DNA of 64,000 nt from an uncultured bacterium (GTDB lineage Bacteria > Planctomycetota > UBA1135 > GCA-002686595), in assembly GCA_943787795.1 (NCBI GenBank), contig CALSNU010000005.1, forward strand, positions 32,001-96,000, in the 5' to 3' direction. Positions 3,404-32,780 of this stretch are shown here, in pieces; the stretch's first letter is position 1, and every line of letters starts with the position of its first letter. A model generated the notes under the pieces. That model was not told where the DNA came from. It searched no databases and saw nothing but the letters and a program-made list of their open reading frames with translations. The translations under genes were made by a program, and so were the position numbers.

Positions 3404-5119
3404 TCAGCGCCGGACCAAGAACTGGACCTGCAGCCCCTCGGGCCCGTCCACCACGGTGATGAGGTCAAGGCGACCGTCGCCATCAAGGTCGCGGGCGCGC
3501 ACGCCCCGGTCGTCCTTGCCGGGCCAGGTGGGGAACGTGGCGACCGGCGTCTTCCCTGCGGTCGCGTCGCGCAGCCCCTTTCCAGGTGCGACCGCAAATC
3601 GATCGAGCTCCCCGAGGTCGATGACGCTCTCCTCGCCGTCGCCGAGGCGATCGAGGTCGTTGAGCACGACCTTCTCGATGATGCCGTCCACGCCGTCCTC
3701 CACGGAGAGGTCCTCGAAGCGCTGCTGGGCGGGGGCGCAGTTGGCGAAGATCATCAGCTGATCGTCCACCACGTCGACGATGTCGTTCGCCTCGCCGTCG
3801 CCGTCCCAGTCGAGCCTGCGGGCGGGGATGTCCCACTGGGCCTCGAGCTGCTCGGAGACCTCCTCGAACTCGTTCATGAGCTTGAAGATGCGCGGGATCC
3901 GCAGGGCCAGGGTCGTCCGGCGGGTGGGGCGTCGGTCGAAGGTGCCCCCCTTGTTCTCGTAGGTGAAGACGTCGAAGTCCAGCTTGCCGGGCACCACGAG
4001 GAACTTCACCAGCTGCGCCAGTGAGATGCGCTCGCCGCGCACGATCTGGAGGTCGGGCGCGTCGTCCCCGAGCACGTCGCGCACGAAGAAGTAGAGCACG
4101 TTCCCCGAGGCCTTGAGGACCTGGTCCGGGGCGCCGGAGGGGCCCGCGAGGGTCGCGCCGCGGTAGACCTTGAAGGTGCCCTCGGAGCTCACGATGAGGT
4201 CCCTGGGCCCCTCGCCGTCGAGGTCGACCGCGCGCCACTGGGCGAGCCCGCTGACCGCGCCCAGGAGGTTGTCGAGGTCGAGGTCGCTGGCTGACGGCGC
4301 GCTCCGCAGCTCGGAGAGGTCCAGGCTCCAGGTCGGCCGCGCGTCGATCTCGGGCTTCGCGAGGTGGAAGGCCACCCGCTCCGAGGTCTCGGACACCAGG
4401 TCGAGCTGCCCGTCCCCGTCGATGTCGTCCATGCTGAACCAGGGGACGCGCACCCGCTGGGAGAACGTGGACGAGAGGCGGTCGGGGTCGCCCGTCCGGT
4501 AGTCGATCTCGGGCTCGTACTCGACCTCGATCGGGTCGGACCAGACGAGCCTCCCGGCGTCATCCAGGCCCCGGTTGAGGCGCATGTGAAAGCGGCCGGG
4601 ACCGGGGAGGACGAGGTCGAGCCGGCCGTCCTCGTCCAGGTCGCGGGTGAACGGGACGCGCACGGTGGCCGCGGGCAGGTACATGCCCGTCTCGAGCACG
4701 GCCTCGGGCTCGGACCACGCGCCTGCGGGAGTGAACGAGCGGCGGACCAGGGTCTTCCCGTCCGAGACCATCAGGACCTCGACACGTCCGTCGCCGTCCA
4801 GGTCGGCGAGGTCCCAGCCCGTGCTGCCGGCGGGCCACTCCAGGAGCGCCCCGGCGGCGGCGTACTTGCCCTCGGCGTCCAGGACCTGGGCGAGGATGCC
4901 GGCCGAGGTCAGGGAGAGCAGCTCGATCCGGCCGTCGCCCGTCAGGTCGCGGAGGGCGAGGAGCCCTCCCTTCTTCGCCACGGCGAGTCGGGTCTCCACG
5001 AAGTCCCTGTCCTGCCGGGGGGAGAGGGACGCGGGCCGGATGGGTGAGGCCGCGTGGGCGGCGCTGCCGGTCGCTGCGAGGAGCGCAGCGAGTCCGTGGG
5101 TGAGGCTCTTGAGCGTCAT
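3404..5119 (-). CDS. secreted FG-GAP/VCBS repeat protein
   Basis: Signal peptide ending AHA. Many D-L-D-G-D-G-R-x-D-L repeats. Confidence 0.85.
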   Translation of the reverse strand: MTLKSLTHGLAALLAATGSAAHAASPIRPASLSPRQDRDFVETRLAVAKKGGLLALRDLTGDGRIELLSLTSAGILAQVLDAEGKYAAAGALLEWPAGSTGWDLADLDGDGRVEVLMVSDGKTLVRRSFTPAGAWSEPEAVLETGMYLPAATVRVPFTRDLDEDGRLDLVLPGPGRFHMRLNRGLDDAGRLVWSDPIEVEYEPEIDYRTGDPDRLSSTFSQRVRVPWFSMDDIDGDGQLDLVSETSERVAFHLAKPEIDARPTWSLDLSELRSAPSASDLDLDNLLGAVSGLAQWRAVDLDGEGPRDLIVSSEGTFKVYRGATLAGPSGAPDQVLKASGNVLYFFVRDVLGDDAPDLQIVRGERISLAQLVKFLVVPGKLDFDVFTYENKGGTFDRRPTRRTTLALRIPRIFKLMNEFEEVSEQLEAQWDIPARRLDWDGDGEANDIVDVVDDQLMIFANCAPAQQRFEDLSVEDGVDGIIEKVVLNDLDRLGDGEESVIDLGELDRFAVAPGKGLRDATAGKTPVATFPTWPGKDDRGVRARDLDGDGRLDLITVVDGPEGLQVQFLVRR

Positions 5120-16459: not shown

Positions 16460-16665
16460 ACCAAGGCGGGGGGCCGTGGCAGGAAACCCGCGCCGGGACC
16501 GTTCGAGGGCCTAGTGAGCGAGGGCCTAGCGGGCCTTCGGCCCGGGCGATCGACCTCGATCGCCGTCACCGAGCGCCGCTCGCGGGCAGGTGACCTTCGC
16601 TGGGCGGAAGCTCCTCCTTGGGACCCCAAGGGCCCGGTCAGCGATCCTGTGGCCCGGTCAGGGAA

Positions 16666-17538
16666 TCAACGGCGGACCACCTCGAACGGGGGCTTGGGGT
16701 AGACGGGTTCGAGCGTGCTGTTCTTCGTGGGGGACTCCAACGGAGTCGAGGCGCCGCCGCCTCAGCCGTACTCCATGGAGCCCGTCTCAAGGACGGTCTT
16801 GTCCCCACCGAGGAGCCGGTACTCCATGGGAATACGAGCGCCGGAGCGATAGATCGTCAGGCCCGCGCCGCTCGCGCCGCCGGCGCCCGTGATCTTGATC
16901 GCACCTCGCTTCCCCGTGACCTGCGAGGCGAGGTGGATGCGCGGATCGACGTCGAGCCGCGTGACCTTTCCCTCCACGATCTCGATCTTCTGGAGGGTCG
17001 CAGCCGTCGCCGAGATGTGCCAGTGGACACGCTTCTCGACCCGTTCGATCCGGTACGTCCGCAGCCGATAGGTGCCGGCGGGGAGGACACGGGGGTCCCT
17101 CCTCGCGCGGCCCTTGCCGCTCCAGGAGAGACGGTAGCTCTTGCCCTCCGCGTCGGTGAGGAAGAGGTCGCCGATGGGGATGTTGGCGGTCAGCGTGCCC
17201 TCACCCTTCCGCCGGCGCCTCTTGCTCGACAGCACCTCTGGCAGCTCAAGCGGGCGCGCGCTCAGGAACTCGATCAGGGCCGCACGGACCCGTTCGGGGG
17301 CGCCGCTTCAGGCGGTGTCCTTGACCTGATTCAGCCACGCGCGATCCCGCGGAAGCTCCGGGTCCGGCGGCAGGTGGCAGGCCATGCAGGAGCGCTGGAA
17401 GAGCTCCCCTGCCTGGGCGATCTCGGCGGCCTTGGGGCCGTCATCCTGCCTGACCGGCGAAGGCGCGAGTCGGGCGGCGGTGAGCGGGGCCGTCAGGGCC
17501 ATCAGGGCCGTCAAGGCGAGGAGGTTGAGGTGTTGCAT
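16666..17538 (-). CDS. candidate selenoprotein: secreted monoheme cytochrome c with two in-frame UGA (U77, U259), 290 aa
   Basis: ORFs 17308-17538 and 16762-17235 share a frame and are separated only by TGA. Signal peptide and CMACH. Coding-like codon bias continues past both TGAs, and a SECIS-like hairpin follows each. Confidence 0.75.
16733..16747 (-). promoter_or_regulatory. candidate SECIS for UGA at 16762-16764
   Basis: GACUCC-GUU-GGAGUC, a perfect 6-bp stem. The loop begins with GU, 20 nt after the UGA. Confidence 0.6.
17280..17297 (-). promoter_or_regulatory. candidate SECIS for UGA at 17308-17310
   Basis: CCG-A-ACG-[GGUC]-CGU-G-CGG hairpin. The GGUC loop starts 17 nt after the UGA. 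Confidence 0.6.
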
Positions 17539-18413
17539 GGCAGCATGATTGGGCCTTTGGAGGCAGCGGGGTCCTTGGCCTGTCGCGCACGGGGGCCTCT
17601 GCCCGGCGCAGCGAGGCCTTGCCCCAGGATTTTGCCTGCGGGCGGCTCGCCGCGGTTCTCAGCCCTGCGAATGGCGTCAATCATCGTCGCTTACCGATGG
17701 TCTTGAAGTGACTTTGGGGCCGCGCTGGTCATCGCTCGTGCGCCTCCTCAGCGCCGCGCTTGAGCCTCTTCACCAAGGATGGAGCGGAGGAGCACTCGAT
17801 CCATGGGGTCGCGGTGGGGCGAAGGGCTGCGAGAGTCGAGCATGAGGCACCTATCGAGCGCGAGGCGCTGCCTTGGGCAATCGCGCAAACCCCGACCTCG
17901 TCATGATAAGCCCCAAACATACCTCTTGGAGAGCGACGGCGAGCCGGCATCTGTTCATGGACGCCGGGAGCCAGAGCGAGGAGAGTCGTTGGGGCTGGTG
18001 CGGGGCAATCCCGGCGGACGGTGAGCTCATGGCCTTGGCGGAGCTAGTTGCAGAGACGCGGCCAAGTGGGTGACGATCCTGGGCGCACGTCGTGACGGTC
18101 ACCTCCCGCCGCAGCGGGGCCAGGGACGGCCCCTGGAGCTCTTCACCGTCACGTCTACTGTCCCTAGTACCTCACATGACGGTCCCGCCATCGGTCCGGA
18201 CTCGCCCCAACACGAGCAGGGCTCTGCTCGGTCAGGCGAGCGTTGCGCTGCTCCGGCAAGACCTCCGGCAACTCCAACCGCAGGTGTGGCGCGGGGCCAT
18301 AGAGGGGGTATCCTCTCCCCCGGGAGCTGAATCATTGGACGGGATGTCCCCTCTCGGCCCTTCTCCCCGCCGCGATGAAACAGCCTCGTTCGGTCCACCG
18401 CGAGGATAGGTCG

Positions 18414-19486: not shown

Positions 19487-21208
19487 TCACTCGAAGGTGA
19501 TCCGGACGCCGTCGGTGAAGTTGGAGGTGGCGAAGAAGATGGCGGTGTCGCGGTGCCAGGCCTGGAAGGACCAGCTCTCGCCCGCGACGGCGGCGACCGC
19601 TCCGGTGGGCTGGGGGATGGCCCCGAGGTCGAGGGTCAGGGAGAACGAGCCGGCGGTGCCGGTGTTCAAAATCTGCCCCGCGCCCACGTAGCGACCGATG
19701 GAGCCGGAGAGGCACAGGTTGCCGGCGCTGCCGCCGGGGTTCAGGGCGAAGCCGCGGGTGCGGCTGGCGATGAAGAAACCGAAGGCGTTCAGCGGCAGGC
19801 GCGAGGCCGTGAGGGTCACGTTGTTCTGGCTGACGTCCAGGGAGCCGCTGGCGTCGGTGCGCCCGGTGAGCCCCGTGGAGTTGGGGTTGGCGAAGCAGAA
19901 GACCGCGCCGATGTTGCTGCTGGCCTCGTACGCACCCATGTCGACGATGGGCGCGGTGCCCGCGCCGGTGTCGGCGACGGAGGGCTCGTCGAAGCGGCGG
20001 CGGGCGCCGTCGGCGTCGGTCTCGGTGCCGGGGAGCAGGCTGGCGTTGTCGCCGGCGTCGATGCCGGGAGAGGGGACCTGCAGCCGGAAGTTCCCGGCGG
20101 CCTGGTCCACGAAGAGCGGCGCCGCGCTGATGTTGCCGGTGCCGGTGAAGCCGCCCTCGACCAGGCAGTGGCGGACGTTGGCGCCGTTGGACACCTGGTT
20201 GAACGGACCCTGCGCGCCGCCGGGGCCGGTATTGGCCCAGACGATCGAGTTGCGGATCGTCGGGGTGGCGCCCTGGACGCGGATGCCGCCAGCGGCCTGG
20301 GAGGTGGCGCTGTTGCCGACGATGGTGCAGTTGCGTACGCGGGTCGAACCGCCGGAGCCAATCCAGAGGGCCCCGCCGCCCGACGAGCCGGTGGCGACGT
20401 TGCCCGTGAAGACCGAGTTGAGCACCGAGACGCTGCCCGTGGAGAAGATCTCCAGGGCGCCCGCGCGGGACGCGCGGTTGTTCTCGAACCAGCAGCCGTC
20501 GAAGACCACCGCGCCGCCCGTGGCAATGTCAAAGGCGCCGCCGAAGGCGCCGCCGACGTTCTCGCGGAACGAGCAGTTGATGAAGTCCGGACCAGAGCTG
20601 TTGATGTACCCCGCGCCGCCGCCGAAGGTGCAGCGGTTCGCGACGAAGTCGCAGTTCCGGATGGTCGGATTGACGCCGCCCACGCACAGGATCCCGCCGC
20701 CGCGGTCGGCGCTGCCGCCGGAGCTCCCGTTGGAGTTGCCCCCGGTGATGGTGAAGCCGTCGAGGACCGCCGAGGCGTTGGTCGTCTGGGTGCGGACCAC
20801 GTGGTACGAGTTCTCGGCGTTGCCGCTGAAGTTCGGGCCGTCGTTACCGTTCAGGTCCGCCGTCAGGATCGAGGGGGCGAAGCCGAAGGCGGGGCGCTCG
20901 TCAGGGGAGGACTCGCCGCCGGCGAAGCCGCCGTAGATCTCCACGTCGTTCTGCAGGCGGAAGGAGAGCGCCCGGCTCCCCGTGCTGTTCGTGCGGTAGA
21001 GCCCCTCGGCCACGAAGACCTCGTCTCCGGGGGTGGTCACGGCCAGGGCGGCCTGGAGGCCGTCGGTGCCCTGGAAGGCGTCGGCCCACGAGGACCCGTC
21101 GTTGGCGCCGGTGGTCAGGTTGGCGTCCACGTGCACGGTCTGAGCGGCGGCGGCGCCCATGAGGGCGAGGGCGGGGACGAGGTGGGCAGCGAGCTGGTTC
21201 AGGCGCAT
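19487..21208 (-). CDS. secreted right-handed beta-helix (pectin-lyase-like) protein with conserved C-terminal domain
   Basis: Signal peptide, VHVDA...ANDGSSWADAF, F..N.A..GGA repeats, SPGIDAG...VDMGAYE, then NPNSTG...GNLCLSG...FQAWHRD...SNFTDG tail. Confidence 0.85.
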   Translation of the reverse strand: MRLNQLAAHLVPALALMGAAAAQTVHVDANLTTGANDGSSWADAFQGTDGLQAALAVTTPGDEVFVAEGLYRTNSTGSRALSFRLQNDVEIYGGFAGGESSPDERPAFGFAPSILTADLNGNDGPNFSGNAENSYHVVRTQTTNASAVLDGFTITGGNSNGSSGGSADRGGGILCVGGVNPTIRNCDFVANRCTFGGGAGYINSSGPDFINCSFRENVGGAFGGAFDIATGGAVVFDGCWFENNRASRAGALEIFSTGSVSVLNSVFTGNVATGSSGGGALWIGSGGSTRVRNCTIVGNSATSQAAGGIRVQGATPTIRNSIVWANTGPGGAQGPFNQVSNGANVRHCLVEGGFTGTGNISAAPLFVDQAAGNFRLQVPSPGIDAGDNASLLPGTETDADGARRRFDEPSVADTGAGTAPIVDMGAYEASSNIGAVFCFANPNSTGLTGRTDASGSLDVSQNNVTLTASRLPLNAFGFFIASRTRGFALNPGGSAGNLCLSGSIGRYVGAGQILNTGTAGSFSLTLDLGAIPQPTGAVAAVAGESWSFQAWHRDTAIFFATSNFTDGVRITFE

Positions 21209-30989: not shown

Positions 30990-32780
30990 TCAGTCGCCTC
31001 CCTCGCCGACGGCCGGGGCGGTGCCCTTGGGGTGAGCGGGGGGGTAGAGACCGTCGCGCGGCCCCCAGGCCTCCACGGGCTGCATGTCGTCACGGCCCTC
31101 CAGGCGCGCGCGCTTCGCCGCCAGCTCCTCCTCGTCCATCCAGTACCAGAACTTCGGGAAGTGCTCGTCCTTGACGTTGGGGAAGTAGCCGCCGAGGCGC
31201 GGGCTGAAGGTGGTCTGGGTGACGTAGTTGTAGATCGGCAGCACGGGCAGCTCCTCCACCAGGATGGCCTCTGCCTGCTGGAGCATGGCCATGCGCTTCG
31301 CGGGGTCGAGCTCCGCTGCGGCGTCGCGCACCAGGGCGTCGTAGGCCGCGTTGCCCCACCCGGTCTTGTTGTTCTCGCCGCCGGTCACGAACAGGTCCAC
31401 GAAGTTGTTGGGGTCCGCGTAGTCGCCGATCCAGGCGGAGCGCGAGACGTCGTAGCCGACGTTGGACTGGGTGTCGAGGTACACCTTCCACTCCTGGTTC
31501 AGGAGCTTGGCGTTGATGCCGAGGTACTTGGACCAGGCGTCCGCGATGACCAGCGCGATCTGCATGTGCGCGTCCGCGGTGTTGTAGTGGATCTCGATGG
31601 TGGGGAAGGTCTTGCCGCCGGCGCCGTAGCCGGCCTCCGCGATCAGCCGCTTGGCCTCGGCCACGTCCGCCTCATAGGTCGCGCCGTGGGGCATGTTCGC
31701 GTTCGTGTACCCGGCGAGGCCGGGGGGCACGAGGGCGTAGGCGGGGACCTGGCCGGCCTTGGTCACCTTCTCGCAGATGTCCTGCCGGGGGATCGTCAGC
31801 GACAGCGCGCGACGGACGCGCGCGTCATCCAGGGGCGGCTTGGTGACGTTGACCCGGTAGAAGTAGGTGCCCAGGTAGGGGATGGGGTTGAAGTCCTCCC
31901 GGGGCATCAGCTCCTGGATGACGTTGGCCGGGGGCACGTCGATCCAGTGGCACTCGCCCGTGAGGTAGAGGTTGAGCGCCGTCGTGTACGACTCCACGGC
32001 CAGGGCGTCGACGGTCTCGAAGGCGACGTTGTCCGCGTCCCAGTAGCTGGGGTTCTTGACGAAGCGGATGCGGTCGTTCACGCGGCGGAACTCCACCACG
32101 TAAGGCCCGTTGCAGACGATGTTCTCGGGGCGCAGCCACTGCTGCTGCCAGCGGTCCGGGAAGCGCTCCTTCGCCTCCTCGATGTTGCGCCGGTTCACCG
32201 GGAACATCGGGTAGAACGCCATGAGCTCCAGGAAGAAGGGCGTCGGCGCCTTGAGCCGGAAGCGGATCGTGTACTCGTCGGGCGCGGTGATCCCGACCGT
32301 GTCGAACCCGTGCATCGCCTTGCCGTCCTCGACCTCCGTGGTGAACGCCTCGGCGCCATCCACGTACCAGAGCATGTAGGCGTACTCGGCCGCGGTCTGG
32401 GGGTCGAGGAAGCGCTCGAAGGACCACATGAAGTCCTCGGCGGTGACCGGGTCGCCGTTGGACCAGAGGGCGTCTCGGCGCAGGTGGAACGTGTACTCGA
32501 GGCCGTCCTCGGACACCTCCCATCGCTCTGCGACCCCCGGGAGGGGTTCAAGTGTCTCGGGGTGAGACACGAGCAGGCCCTCGAAGAGCATCCGGATGGC
32601 CCGTCCCTCGGGCACCCCGGTCACGGTCGCGGGGTCCAGGGTCTGGACCTCGGTGCCGTTGTTGAAGACGAAGTCGGCGGGCTCGAGGCGGGCCCCACGG
32701 GTGGCGTAGATCGCCCCCCCGAGGAGGCTCGCCAGGAGGGCGACGGGGATGACCTGGCGGGCGATGCGTTGGAGGGCCAT
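30990..32780 (-). CDS. oppA: oligopeptide ABC substrate-binding protein
   Basis: EVQTLDP, PGVAERWEVSEDGLEYTFHLR..A.WSNGDPVTAEDF, NGPY and WIGDYADP. Confidence 0.93.
   Translation of the reverse strand: MALQRIARQVIPVALLASLLGGAIYATRGARLEPADFVFNNGTEVQTLDPATVTGVPEGRAIRMLFEGLLVSHPETLEPLPGVAERWEVSEDGLEYTFHLRRDALWSNGDPVTAEDFMWSFERFLDPQTAAEYAYMLWYVDGAEAFTTEVEDGKAMHGFDTVGITAPDEYTIRFRLKAPTPFFLELMAFYPMFPVNRRNIEEAKERFPDRWQQQWLRPENIVCNGPYVVEFRRVNDRIRFVKNPSYWDADNVAFETVDALAVESYTTALNLYLTGECHWIDVPPANVIQELMPREDFNPIPYLGTYFYRVNVTKPPLDDARVRRALSLTIPRQDICEKVTKAGQVPAYALVPPGLAGYTNANMPHGATYEADVAEAKRLIAEAGYGAGGKTFPTIEIHYNTADAHMQIALVIADAWSKYLGINAKLLNQEWKVYLDTQSNVGYDVSRSAWIGDYADPNNFVDLFVTGGENNKTGWGNAAYDALVRDAAAELDPAKRMAMLQQAEAILVEELPVLPIYNYVTQTTFSPRLGGYFPNVKDEHFPKFWYWMDEEELAAKRARLEGRDDMQPVEAWGPRDGLYPPAHPKGTAPAVGEGGD

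Follow-up and report, generated by a model that had tools for sequence, protein, structure and literature searches.

A probable c-type cytochrome selenoprotein with two distant selenocysteines in Planctomycetota

Can a small gene for an exported cytochrome c contain two internal UGA codons that are both read as selenocysteine (Sec)? The question is raised by a locus on the reverse strand of the DNA analysed here (the window; 64,000 nucleotides, positions 32,001 to 96,000 of contig CALSNU010000005.1, assembly GCA_943787795.1), which comes from an uncultured bacterium of the Planctomycetota. At window positions 16666–17538, short open reading frames (ORFs) lie in one frame that is interrupted by TGA codons, and the first-pass annotation proposed that these are parts of one selenoprotein, with Sec at residues 77 and 259, that a standard gene caller would split into two hypothetical proteins. 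The comparative analysis reported here strongly supports this proposal, and the relatives of the protein in the databases are themselves nameless and mostly fragments. We consider it very probable that the locus is one gene and that it encodes an exported c-type cytochrome selenoprotein of about 290 residues, with Sec77 and Sec259.

The reading frame and conservation of its two UGA codons

The ORF list of the window contains a 76-amino-acid (aa) ORF at 17308..17538 and a 157-aa ORF with a GTG start at 16762..17235, and these do lie in one frame: reading from the ATG at 17538–17536 passes a TGA at codon 77 and a TGA at codon 259 before ending at a third TGA. The whole gene (16666..17538, minus strand, as for all gene features given below) has 290 codons, two of which are UGA, plus the TGA stop, and homologues align with it end to end. 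It begins with a signal-peptide-like N-terminus (aa 1–22, MQHLNLLALTALMALTAPLTAA; 17473..17538, read from the sequence), which had been noted at first pass together with the CMACH motif, and both are present. Codon 77 (17308..17310; motif D-T-A-U-S) follows ...NQVKDTA in the local sequence VKDTA-U-SGAPER; codon 259 (16762..16764; motif Y-G-U-G-G) follows ...GSMEYG in the local sequence GSMEYG-U-GGGASTPLESPTK; and the true stop (16666..16668) follows ...EVVRR, with homologues stopping within a few residues of the same column. The G+C content of third codon positions is 0.89, 0.88 and 0.90 in the three segments of the read-through frame (28 of 31 codons in the tail), in agreement with the earlier observation that composition stays gene-like past each TGA. 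As the DNA is G+C-rich, the frame alone is unconvincing and the case beyond chance rests on comparative data.

TGA is an ordinary stop in this DNA, as had been stated: it ends this gene, the four neighbours that were checked (RidA, YchF, a methyltransferase and a 573-aa secreted protein) and 37 of the 40 long ATG-initiated ORFs of the window. Any readthrough must therefore be site-specific. In the homologues (n = 15) the final stop column is TAA or TAG in seven and TGA in eight, and no conserved hairpin was found among them 3′ of the final stop.

A six-frame search of 61 genomes (60 relatives and the window's own) gave homologue matches in 12, comprising seven places with two TGA codons inside (own locus included; 37–68% identity), two partial places with one TGA and three distant places without TGA inside the matched part. 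GTDB species genomes were also scanned with the protein pattern DRAWLxQV, and thus independently of TGA, which gave 13 loci (12 titled as Planctomycetota or Planctomycetaceae metagenome-assembled genomes or "uncultured bacterium", and one as Fimbriimonadia); both TGAs are present in all 13. Removal of four duplicates of earlier loci left 16 distinct two-Sec sequences with 33–68% identity to the window, every one of which has TGA at both columns. In the loci from the six-frame search, the TGAs lie in the same two motifs throughout, (V/L)x(D/S/R/E)T(A/S)-U-(S/T) and (Y)G-U-GG. The three distant matches encode Cys (TGC) at column 77 and carry a TGA where column 259 aligns (PT-U-GVY). When the phylum was sampled evenly, 42 of the 301 genomes drawn contained a match; of the 47 matching places, 24 have two TGAs, 22 have one and one has none, so that 46 of the 47 have at least one.

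The first-pass annotation had asked whether homologues hold TGA or Cys codons at these columns. At column 77 the answer was positive on both counts: each of the 16 close homologues has TGA and each of the other 27 sequences with that column has Cys, so that the residue is Cys or Sec in all 43; at column 259 the TGA part of the expectation stood and the Cys part did not. Sec77 was found only alongside Sec259 (16/16). Homology spans both TGAs, with similar identity to the window before, between and after them (53%, 45% and 48% for locus L023), and the tail beyond the second (aa 260–290) has 23–65% identity, comparable to the rest of the protein. R85 and P100, which lie between the first TGA and the GTG of the 157-aa ORF, are invariant; as this stretch is conserved, the 157-aa ORF has no credible start of its own, as had been suspected. 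The bases themselves are supported by DNA contigs of two other studies, which carry both TGAs with no difference at these codons, and the sequence also occurs in metagenome runs (marine, seawater and plankton) from nine studies. On this comparison of homologues, both internal UGAs are conserved coding positions.

Two genomes of the same genus contain the C-terminal part of a homologue only (L028:1504-1962 in G017 and L031:1510-1650 in G006), with TGA kept at the Sec259 column and proline/serine-rich sequence instead of the heme domain upstream. These copies may be decayed or rearranged.

Hairpins after the UGA codons and the selenocysteine machinery

A hairpin 3′ of each UGA, which the first-pass annotation had named as part of the bacterial Sec code, was found to be conserved and covarying at both sites, and both hairpins resemble a bacterial selenocysteine insertion sequence (SECIS). 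Hairpin 1 (GGGUC-CGUGC-GGCCC, 17277..17291; alignment A4; minimum free energy −7.4 kcal/mol) has a 5-bp stem and the loop CGUGC, which starts 21 nt 3′ of the UGA; among homologues the first TGA is followed by a 16-nt spacer and then (A/G)(G/A)G(C/U)C-CGUGN-GGC(C/U)(U/C). Hairpin 2 (GACUCC-GUU-GGAGUC, 16733..16747; alignment A3; −8.1 kcal/mol) has a 6-bp stem and the loop GUU, which starts 20 nt 3′ of the UGA, the second TGA being followed by a 14-nt spacer and then G(A/G)CU(C/U)C-G(U/G)U-G(G/A)AG(U/C)C. The common geometry is a stem of 5–6 bp, a loop of 3–5 nt with G then U/G, and a loop start 20–21 nt after the UGA.

For hairpin 2 (16 sequences), 94.8% of alignment cells are paired and four of the six pairs are changed on both sides, one pair for example being C-G in eight sequences and U-A in eight; the covariation score was reached by none of 500 shuffles, and controls slid along the alignment pair at 27–55%. 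At the protein level this covariation amounts to Pro..Glu versus Ser..Lys. For hairpin 1, 93.8% of cells are paired, two pairs are changed on both sides and 3–4 of 500 shuffles reach the score; the Arg codon in its loop is CGU in 15 of the 16 sequences. Hairpin 1 is absent from all three Cys77 (TGC) forms, which retain the loop Arg. Both hairpins fit the published bacterial SECIS model, whose criteria include an energy limit of −7.5 kcal/mol (PMC13188914); the energy at site 1 is marginal (homologue range −6.4 to −14.3 kcal/mol) and that at site 2 lies within the limit. A search of 16500–17700 against Rfam (E ≤ 10) gave four chance-level matches and no SECIS family.

The first-pass annotation had also named the Sec machinery as a check, and all four components were found in the window's genome (an assembly of eight contigs, 84.9% complete): selA (456.6 bits), selB (327.9 bits), selD (327.2 bits) and selC, the tRNA-Sec (69 bits), each above its cut-off, with one tRNA above cut-off in the tRNA-Sec search. 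The selD gene is of the Sec type, with a single in-frame TGA at the AGUAAK site (...CAG-U-AAK...) and a hairpin of 7-bp stem and loop GUG 33 nt after this UGA. It is adjoined by selA on the same contig as the window (G000:C5:184589-187201, approximately 88 kb past the window end), and selA is present in 59 of 61 related genomes. The genome also encodes the cytochrome c assembly protein PF01578 (85.3 bits).

Protein architecture, relatives and known systems

An AlphaFold2 model of the read-through protein, built from a 139-row alignment, has a mean predicted local distance difference test score (pLDDT) of 90.0 and a predicted template-modelling score of 0.84, and comprises three helices followed by strands to residue 289; pLDDT is low for aa 1–30 and is 95–97 for the 31 residues after the second TGA (aa 260–290). 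In this model a minimal class-I-like cytochrome c domain (aa 34–99, 17242..17439; helices 37–51, 63–72 and 82–93) is followed by two beta-sandwiches, the first Ig-like or transthyretin-like (aa ~107–198, 16945..17220) and the second Ig-like and containing the second UGA (aa ~198–290, 16669..16944). The heme c attachment motif C51-M-A-C54-H55 (17374..17388) is invariant in 45 of 45 covering sequences (alignment A5). In VIA-align, where Z values identify common folds only, the cytochrome domain matched 1aof (Z 5.0, root-mean-square deviation 3.6, 66 residues aligned), 1w2l (Z 4.7) and 6h5l_B (Z 4.7), and the two sandwiches gave Z values of 5–7.4 and 5–5.7, the best of these (7.4) being to generic beta-sandwiches. 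Foldseek against the PDB returned only weak tandem Ig-like or DUF3823 matches (template-modelling score ≤ 0.25).

When the tail was supplied as a separate chain, it was predicted to dock on aa 164–258 with a score of 0.86, compared with 0.00 for the best control. Of 157 solved complexes 116 reach this mark, as do 2 of 215 pairs that are mismatched, counts that hold only roughly given the custom alignments and riding heme used here. The docking runs agree in at least 95% of contacts, with a partner pLDDT of at least 89. Because the tail closes the last beta-sandwich in these models, the second sandwich would be unable to exist without readthrough of the second TGA.

The best cytochrome family match was PF13442 (Cytochrome_CBB3), at 14 bits against a cut-off of 27 and with the 76-aa piece only; no cytochrome family model matched any of 15 homologues. 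Class I monoheme cytochromes c (PF13442; cd1 nitrite reductase, 1aof; caa3 oxidase, 1w2l) share the N-terminal helix, CXXCH and C-terminal helix with the domain described here, which differs from them in its length of approximately 60 residues, its lack of a Met ligand and its fusion to two beta-sandwiches. No conserved Met or second His was found in the cytochrome domain in our alignments. In class I cytochromes the distal heme ligand sits in the loop before the last helix, and the model places residue 77, the invariant Cys/Sec, four residues ahead of this helix in the heme domain. Sec259 is predicted to lie in a loop rich in Gly (YGUGG) within the last Ig-like domain. In some homologues the N-terminus is lipobox-like (LTAC in L025:1489-2337, minus strand; FVAC in L038:4001-4825, plus strand) in place of a plain signal peptide, and part of the family may therefore be lipid-anchored.

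The Sec-bearing tandem beta-sandwich is also found in exported proteins of 364–468 aa that have no cytochrome domain (five proteins in three genomes: L048:808-2106 (+); L049:29-1432, 1439-2818 and 3676-4767 (+), two of the genes being in tandem; and L050:1651-2982 (−)). These have the motif YG-U-G(G/F)(S/T)C, in which a Cys follows Sec at +4 or +6, and N-terminal regions rich in DxDxDG-like motifs. As the tandem sandwich occurs both with and without the cytochrome domain, the Sec module is the core of a wider unnamed family.

HMMER searches against 1.84 billion representatives matched 378 clusters (50% identity) at E ≤ 1e-3 and 147 at E ≤ 1e-10. From 150 matches listed, 120 relatives were aligned, and 106 of these end exactly at residue 258, one before the second TGA; 91 of the 106 start past column 77 and the remaining 15 carry Cys77. 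Eight other relatives with Cys77 extend beyond column 259, where they have R, G, S, E, N or P, and one database piece without an N-terminus has T. None of the database relatives has a name among the cluster members checked, and a protein similarity search gave four unnamed fragments. Neither Pfam nor NCBIfam contains a model that matches the read-through protein, the pieces of it, the 15 homologues or the five cytochrome-less relatives. A PDB sequence profile search found nothing beyond weak similarity near CXXCH (best E 0.012) and pointed to no residue as distal ligand, and the ESM Atlas, searched with the natural Sec-less homologue P0005, gave an unnamed cluster at a best score of 0.75, which is a lead only. 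One relative, P0013 (642 aa), has approximately 400 extra N-terminal residues before the cytochrome domain, in an extension without Pfam match, and ends ...YG before the Sec259 column.

Among known systems, the polysulfide reductase MccSep/ExtKL of Geobacter sulfurreducens (GSU2937-2936; NF040886; PDB 9WT8-9WTC; PMC13510729) is likewise an exported c-type cytochrome selenoprotein that gene callers split at a UGA with a downstream stem-loop. Its active-site heme is ligated by His122 and Cys239, and its Sec is carried by a loop with Gly (D-G-U-P) that projects from an Ig-like beta-sandwich at the C-terminus; activity is severely reduced by C239H, U325A and U325C, and the near-inactivity of U325C parallels the absence of natural Cys at column 259 here (PMC13510729). 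Judged by domain order and motifs, the layout appears to be the same in outline. The two systems differ in that MccSep has five hemes and one Sec, compared with one heme (one CXXCH) and two Sec here, and in that its heme-side residue is Cys, where this gene has Sec. NF040886 did not match the protein encoded here at E ≤ 1. A comparison by hhalign with an MccSep homologue from a Planctomycete yielded a probability of 16%, limited to 20 columns around CXXCH, and no MccSep match was found in the 84.9% complete genome of the window. Pentaheme genes of the MccSep/ExtKL type with one in-frame TGA do occur in two of the 301 Planctomycetota genomes (L046:1391-2569 (+), with the TGA context ...HRIPDG-U-PSK; and L047, G334:C4:10346-11410). 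In TsdA and SoxAX a Cys at the distal position of a c-type heme is catalytic in sulfur–sulfur bond chemistry (cited in PMC13510729); the invariant Cys/Sec77 is predicted to lie in the corresponding loop of the class-I-like domain.

Sec is also combined with CXXCH in the octaheme tetrathionate reductase family (TIGR04315) and the GSU2204 CXXCH family (NF041027) (PMC13188914); these differ from the protein described here in being multiheme or outer-membrane proteins with one Sec, and neither model matches it at E ≤ 1. With ExtKL they are the only heme-related selenoproteins in Table 1 of that 2026 catalogue, where the present family is not listed among 119 selenoprotein families and subfamilies, the supplements being a place where more candidates could be held (PMC13188914). 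Nor was the family described in the literature searched, again with paper supplements, outside that search, as a possible source of candidates. The first-pass annotation had known of no described family with this architecture: the family and its two-Sec, single-heme layout do appear to be new. Sec-containing c-type cytochromes as such are already known from MccSep/ExtKL and octaheme tetrathionate reductases.

The gene is solitary, being convergent with ychF and apart from a divergent methyltransferase gene. The 573-aa secreted protein nearby (19487–21208, minus strand) has Gly/Asn/Ser repeats and the appearance of a right-handed beta-helix, with no Pfam match at E ≤ 1e-5. At the locus in the Fimbriimonadia-titled record (L045:4749-5840, minus strand), a Planctomycete cytochrome C (PSCyt1) domain is present in the product of the gene that converges on the homologue, a neighbour not seen at the other loci.

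Rival readings and a possible heme–selenium site

Given that TGA is a normal stop in this genome, that gene calls and public databases hold only fragments and that two same-genus genomes have truncated, degraded-looking copies (L028 and L031), the locus could be thought a decaying pseudogene, or three unrelated small ORFs with the TGAs as real stops. We find this barely conceivable, as nonsense mutations would not keep arising at the same columns alongside hairpins that covary: 16 distinct sequences, with identities as low as 33%, retain both TGA columns, an in-frame TGA is present at 46 of the 47 places in the phylum sample, the stretch from the first TGA to the GTG is conserved with R85 and P100 invariant, and the tail is conserved like the rest of the protein and completes a confidently modelled domain. 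Readthrough of the UGAs without Sec, whether by near-cognate Trp, Cys or Arg insertion, a suppressor tRNA or a reassigned code, is highly improbable. It would fit with selenium being deduced here from sequence only and with the lack of a Cys counterpart at column 259, where R, G and S are single-base neighbours of UGA although T, E, N and P are not. It is opposed by the complete Sec apparatus with its Sec-type selD, by the Sec/Cys pairing at column 77 and by hairpins of bacterial SECIS geometry at both sites, the first of which is lost exactly where the codon is TGC. As TGA ends the gene and its neighbours, there is no change of code, and the tRNA-Sec search gave one tRNA, no search having been made for suppressor tRNAs genome-wide.

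Several observations do weigh against the selenoprotein reading. The hairpins are small; hairpin 1 of the window just misses the −7.5 kcal/mol limit of the model (PMC13188914), and copies weaker than this limit make up 3/16 for hairpin 1 and 4/16 for hairpin 2. Single-sequence folds of the 65–67 nt after each TGA are not above shuffles (z +0.51 and −0.25). Cys is absent from column 259 in every homologue, an unusual situation for a Sec site, and no recurring partner gene was found among 60 ORFs from nine homologous loci and the window. Contigs X17 and X18 from two metatranscriptome (RNA) libraries cover 16600–16760 and 16805–17210, with the 5′ third uncovered; because they bridge neither TGA and DNA carry-over is possible, they are no evidence for transcription or readthrough. 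The presence of Sec in the protein is argued from homologue comparison together with the structure model.

For the two-Sec protein that we favour, each hairpin would recruit SelB-GTP-Sec-tRNA(Sec); Sec would thereby be inserted at codons 77 and 259, and the third TGA would terminate translation. Following export, heme would be attached to C51/C54 with H55 as proximal ligand, and the minimal cytochrome c domain is predicted to pack on the two Ig-like beta-sandwiches. In the mechanism that we consider likeliest, by analogy with the systems above, the protein would be a periplasmic redox enzyme or carrier in which a nucleophilic Sec259 would attack a chalcogen substrate (polysulfide, disulfide or an oxidised Se/S species), the adduct would be resolved by Cys/Sec77 and electrons would pass singly through the one heme, in an arrangement resembling the His/Cys-heme and Sec centre of MccSep. 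We infer heme ligation by residue 77 from the modelled topology and the absence of a conserved Met or His. Our tentative and, on balance, rather unlikely proposal is that Sec77 is the distal axial heme ligand and that Sec259 swings onto it, giving a one-heme, two-selenium centre that would be a convergent minimal counterpart of the MccSep site, for cleavage or formation of chalcogen–chalcogen bonds in the periplasm of marine Planctomycetota. The heme would then be a natural His/selenolate-ligated one, where relatives would have His/Cys ligation, and the chemistry on it would be of the Se-Se type, or S-Se in those relatives. This heme–selenium mechanism is an attractive analogy. It is weakened by the docking interface, in which the first tail residues contact the beta part only (residues not named there being merely uncertain), and by the lack of sequence homology to MccSep in the hhalign and NF040886 comparisons.

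It is also a real possibility, if short of probable, that Sec77 of this double selenoprotein does not ligate the heme, which would then be an electron-transfer module only, with the two residues forming a diselenide (a selenylsulfide in Cys77 forms) or having separate roles, for example in soft-metal binding or selenium handling. The Sec-bearing tandem sandwich of the five cytochrome-less proteins from three genomes is consistent with this, and has Cys at +4 (4/5) or +6 (1/5); by comparison, the 19 read-through cytochrome forms lack Cys at +4 and always have Cys/Sec77, as would be the case were residue 77 to act as the resolving partner of Sec259, and Sec77 does occur only together with Sec259 (16/16). 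Eight relatives, however, retain Cys77 after losing Sec259, and residue 77 thus has a role of its own; in addition, no other conserved Met or His is available as a distal heme ligand. As the heme-ligating Cys of MccSep also neighbours Sec (PMC13510729), the ligand and resolving roles need not exclude each other.

The selenoproteome gains a widespread family, with its 378 clusters at 50% identity and its presence in 42 of the 301 Planctomycetota genomes sampled. Wherever it occurs, gene calling breaks it up into pieces without a name, and neither Pfam, NCBIfam nor the main table of the 2026 catalogue includes it. It is among few with two distant Sec residues that each have their own SECIS, and for this reason offers a natural system in which to study how a single mRNA is recoded twice; the second Sec, having no natural Cys counterpart, indicates chemistry beyond that of sulfur. 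The hosts are marine bacteria of oxic-to-suboxic settings, and little is known of their redox biology of sulfur and selenium. To our knowledge, selenolate-ligated heme has been made only by engineering, in P450 variants. If Sec77 does ligate the heme, this would be the first natural selenolate–heme protein and, after the case in elemental-sulfur respiration, a second and independent design that combines heme with Sec.

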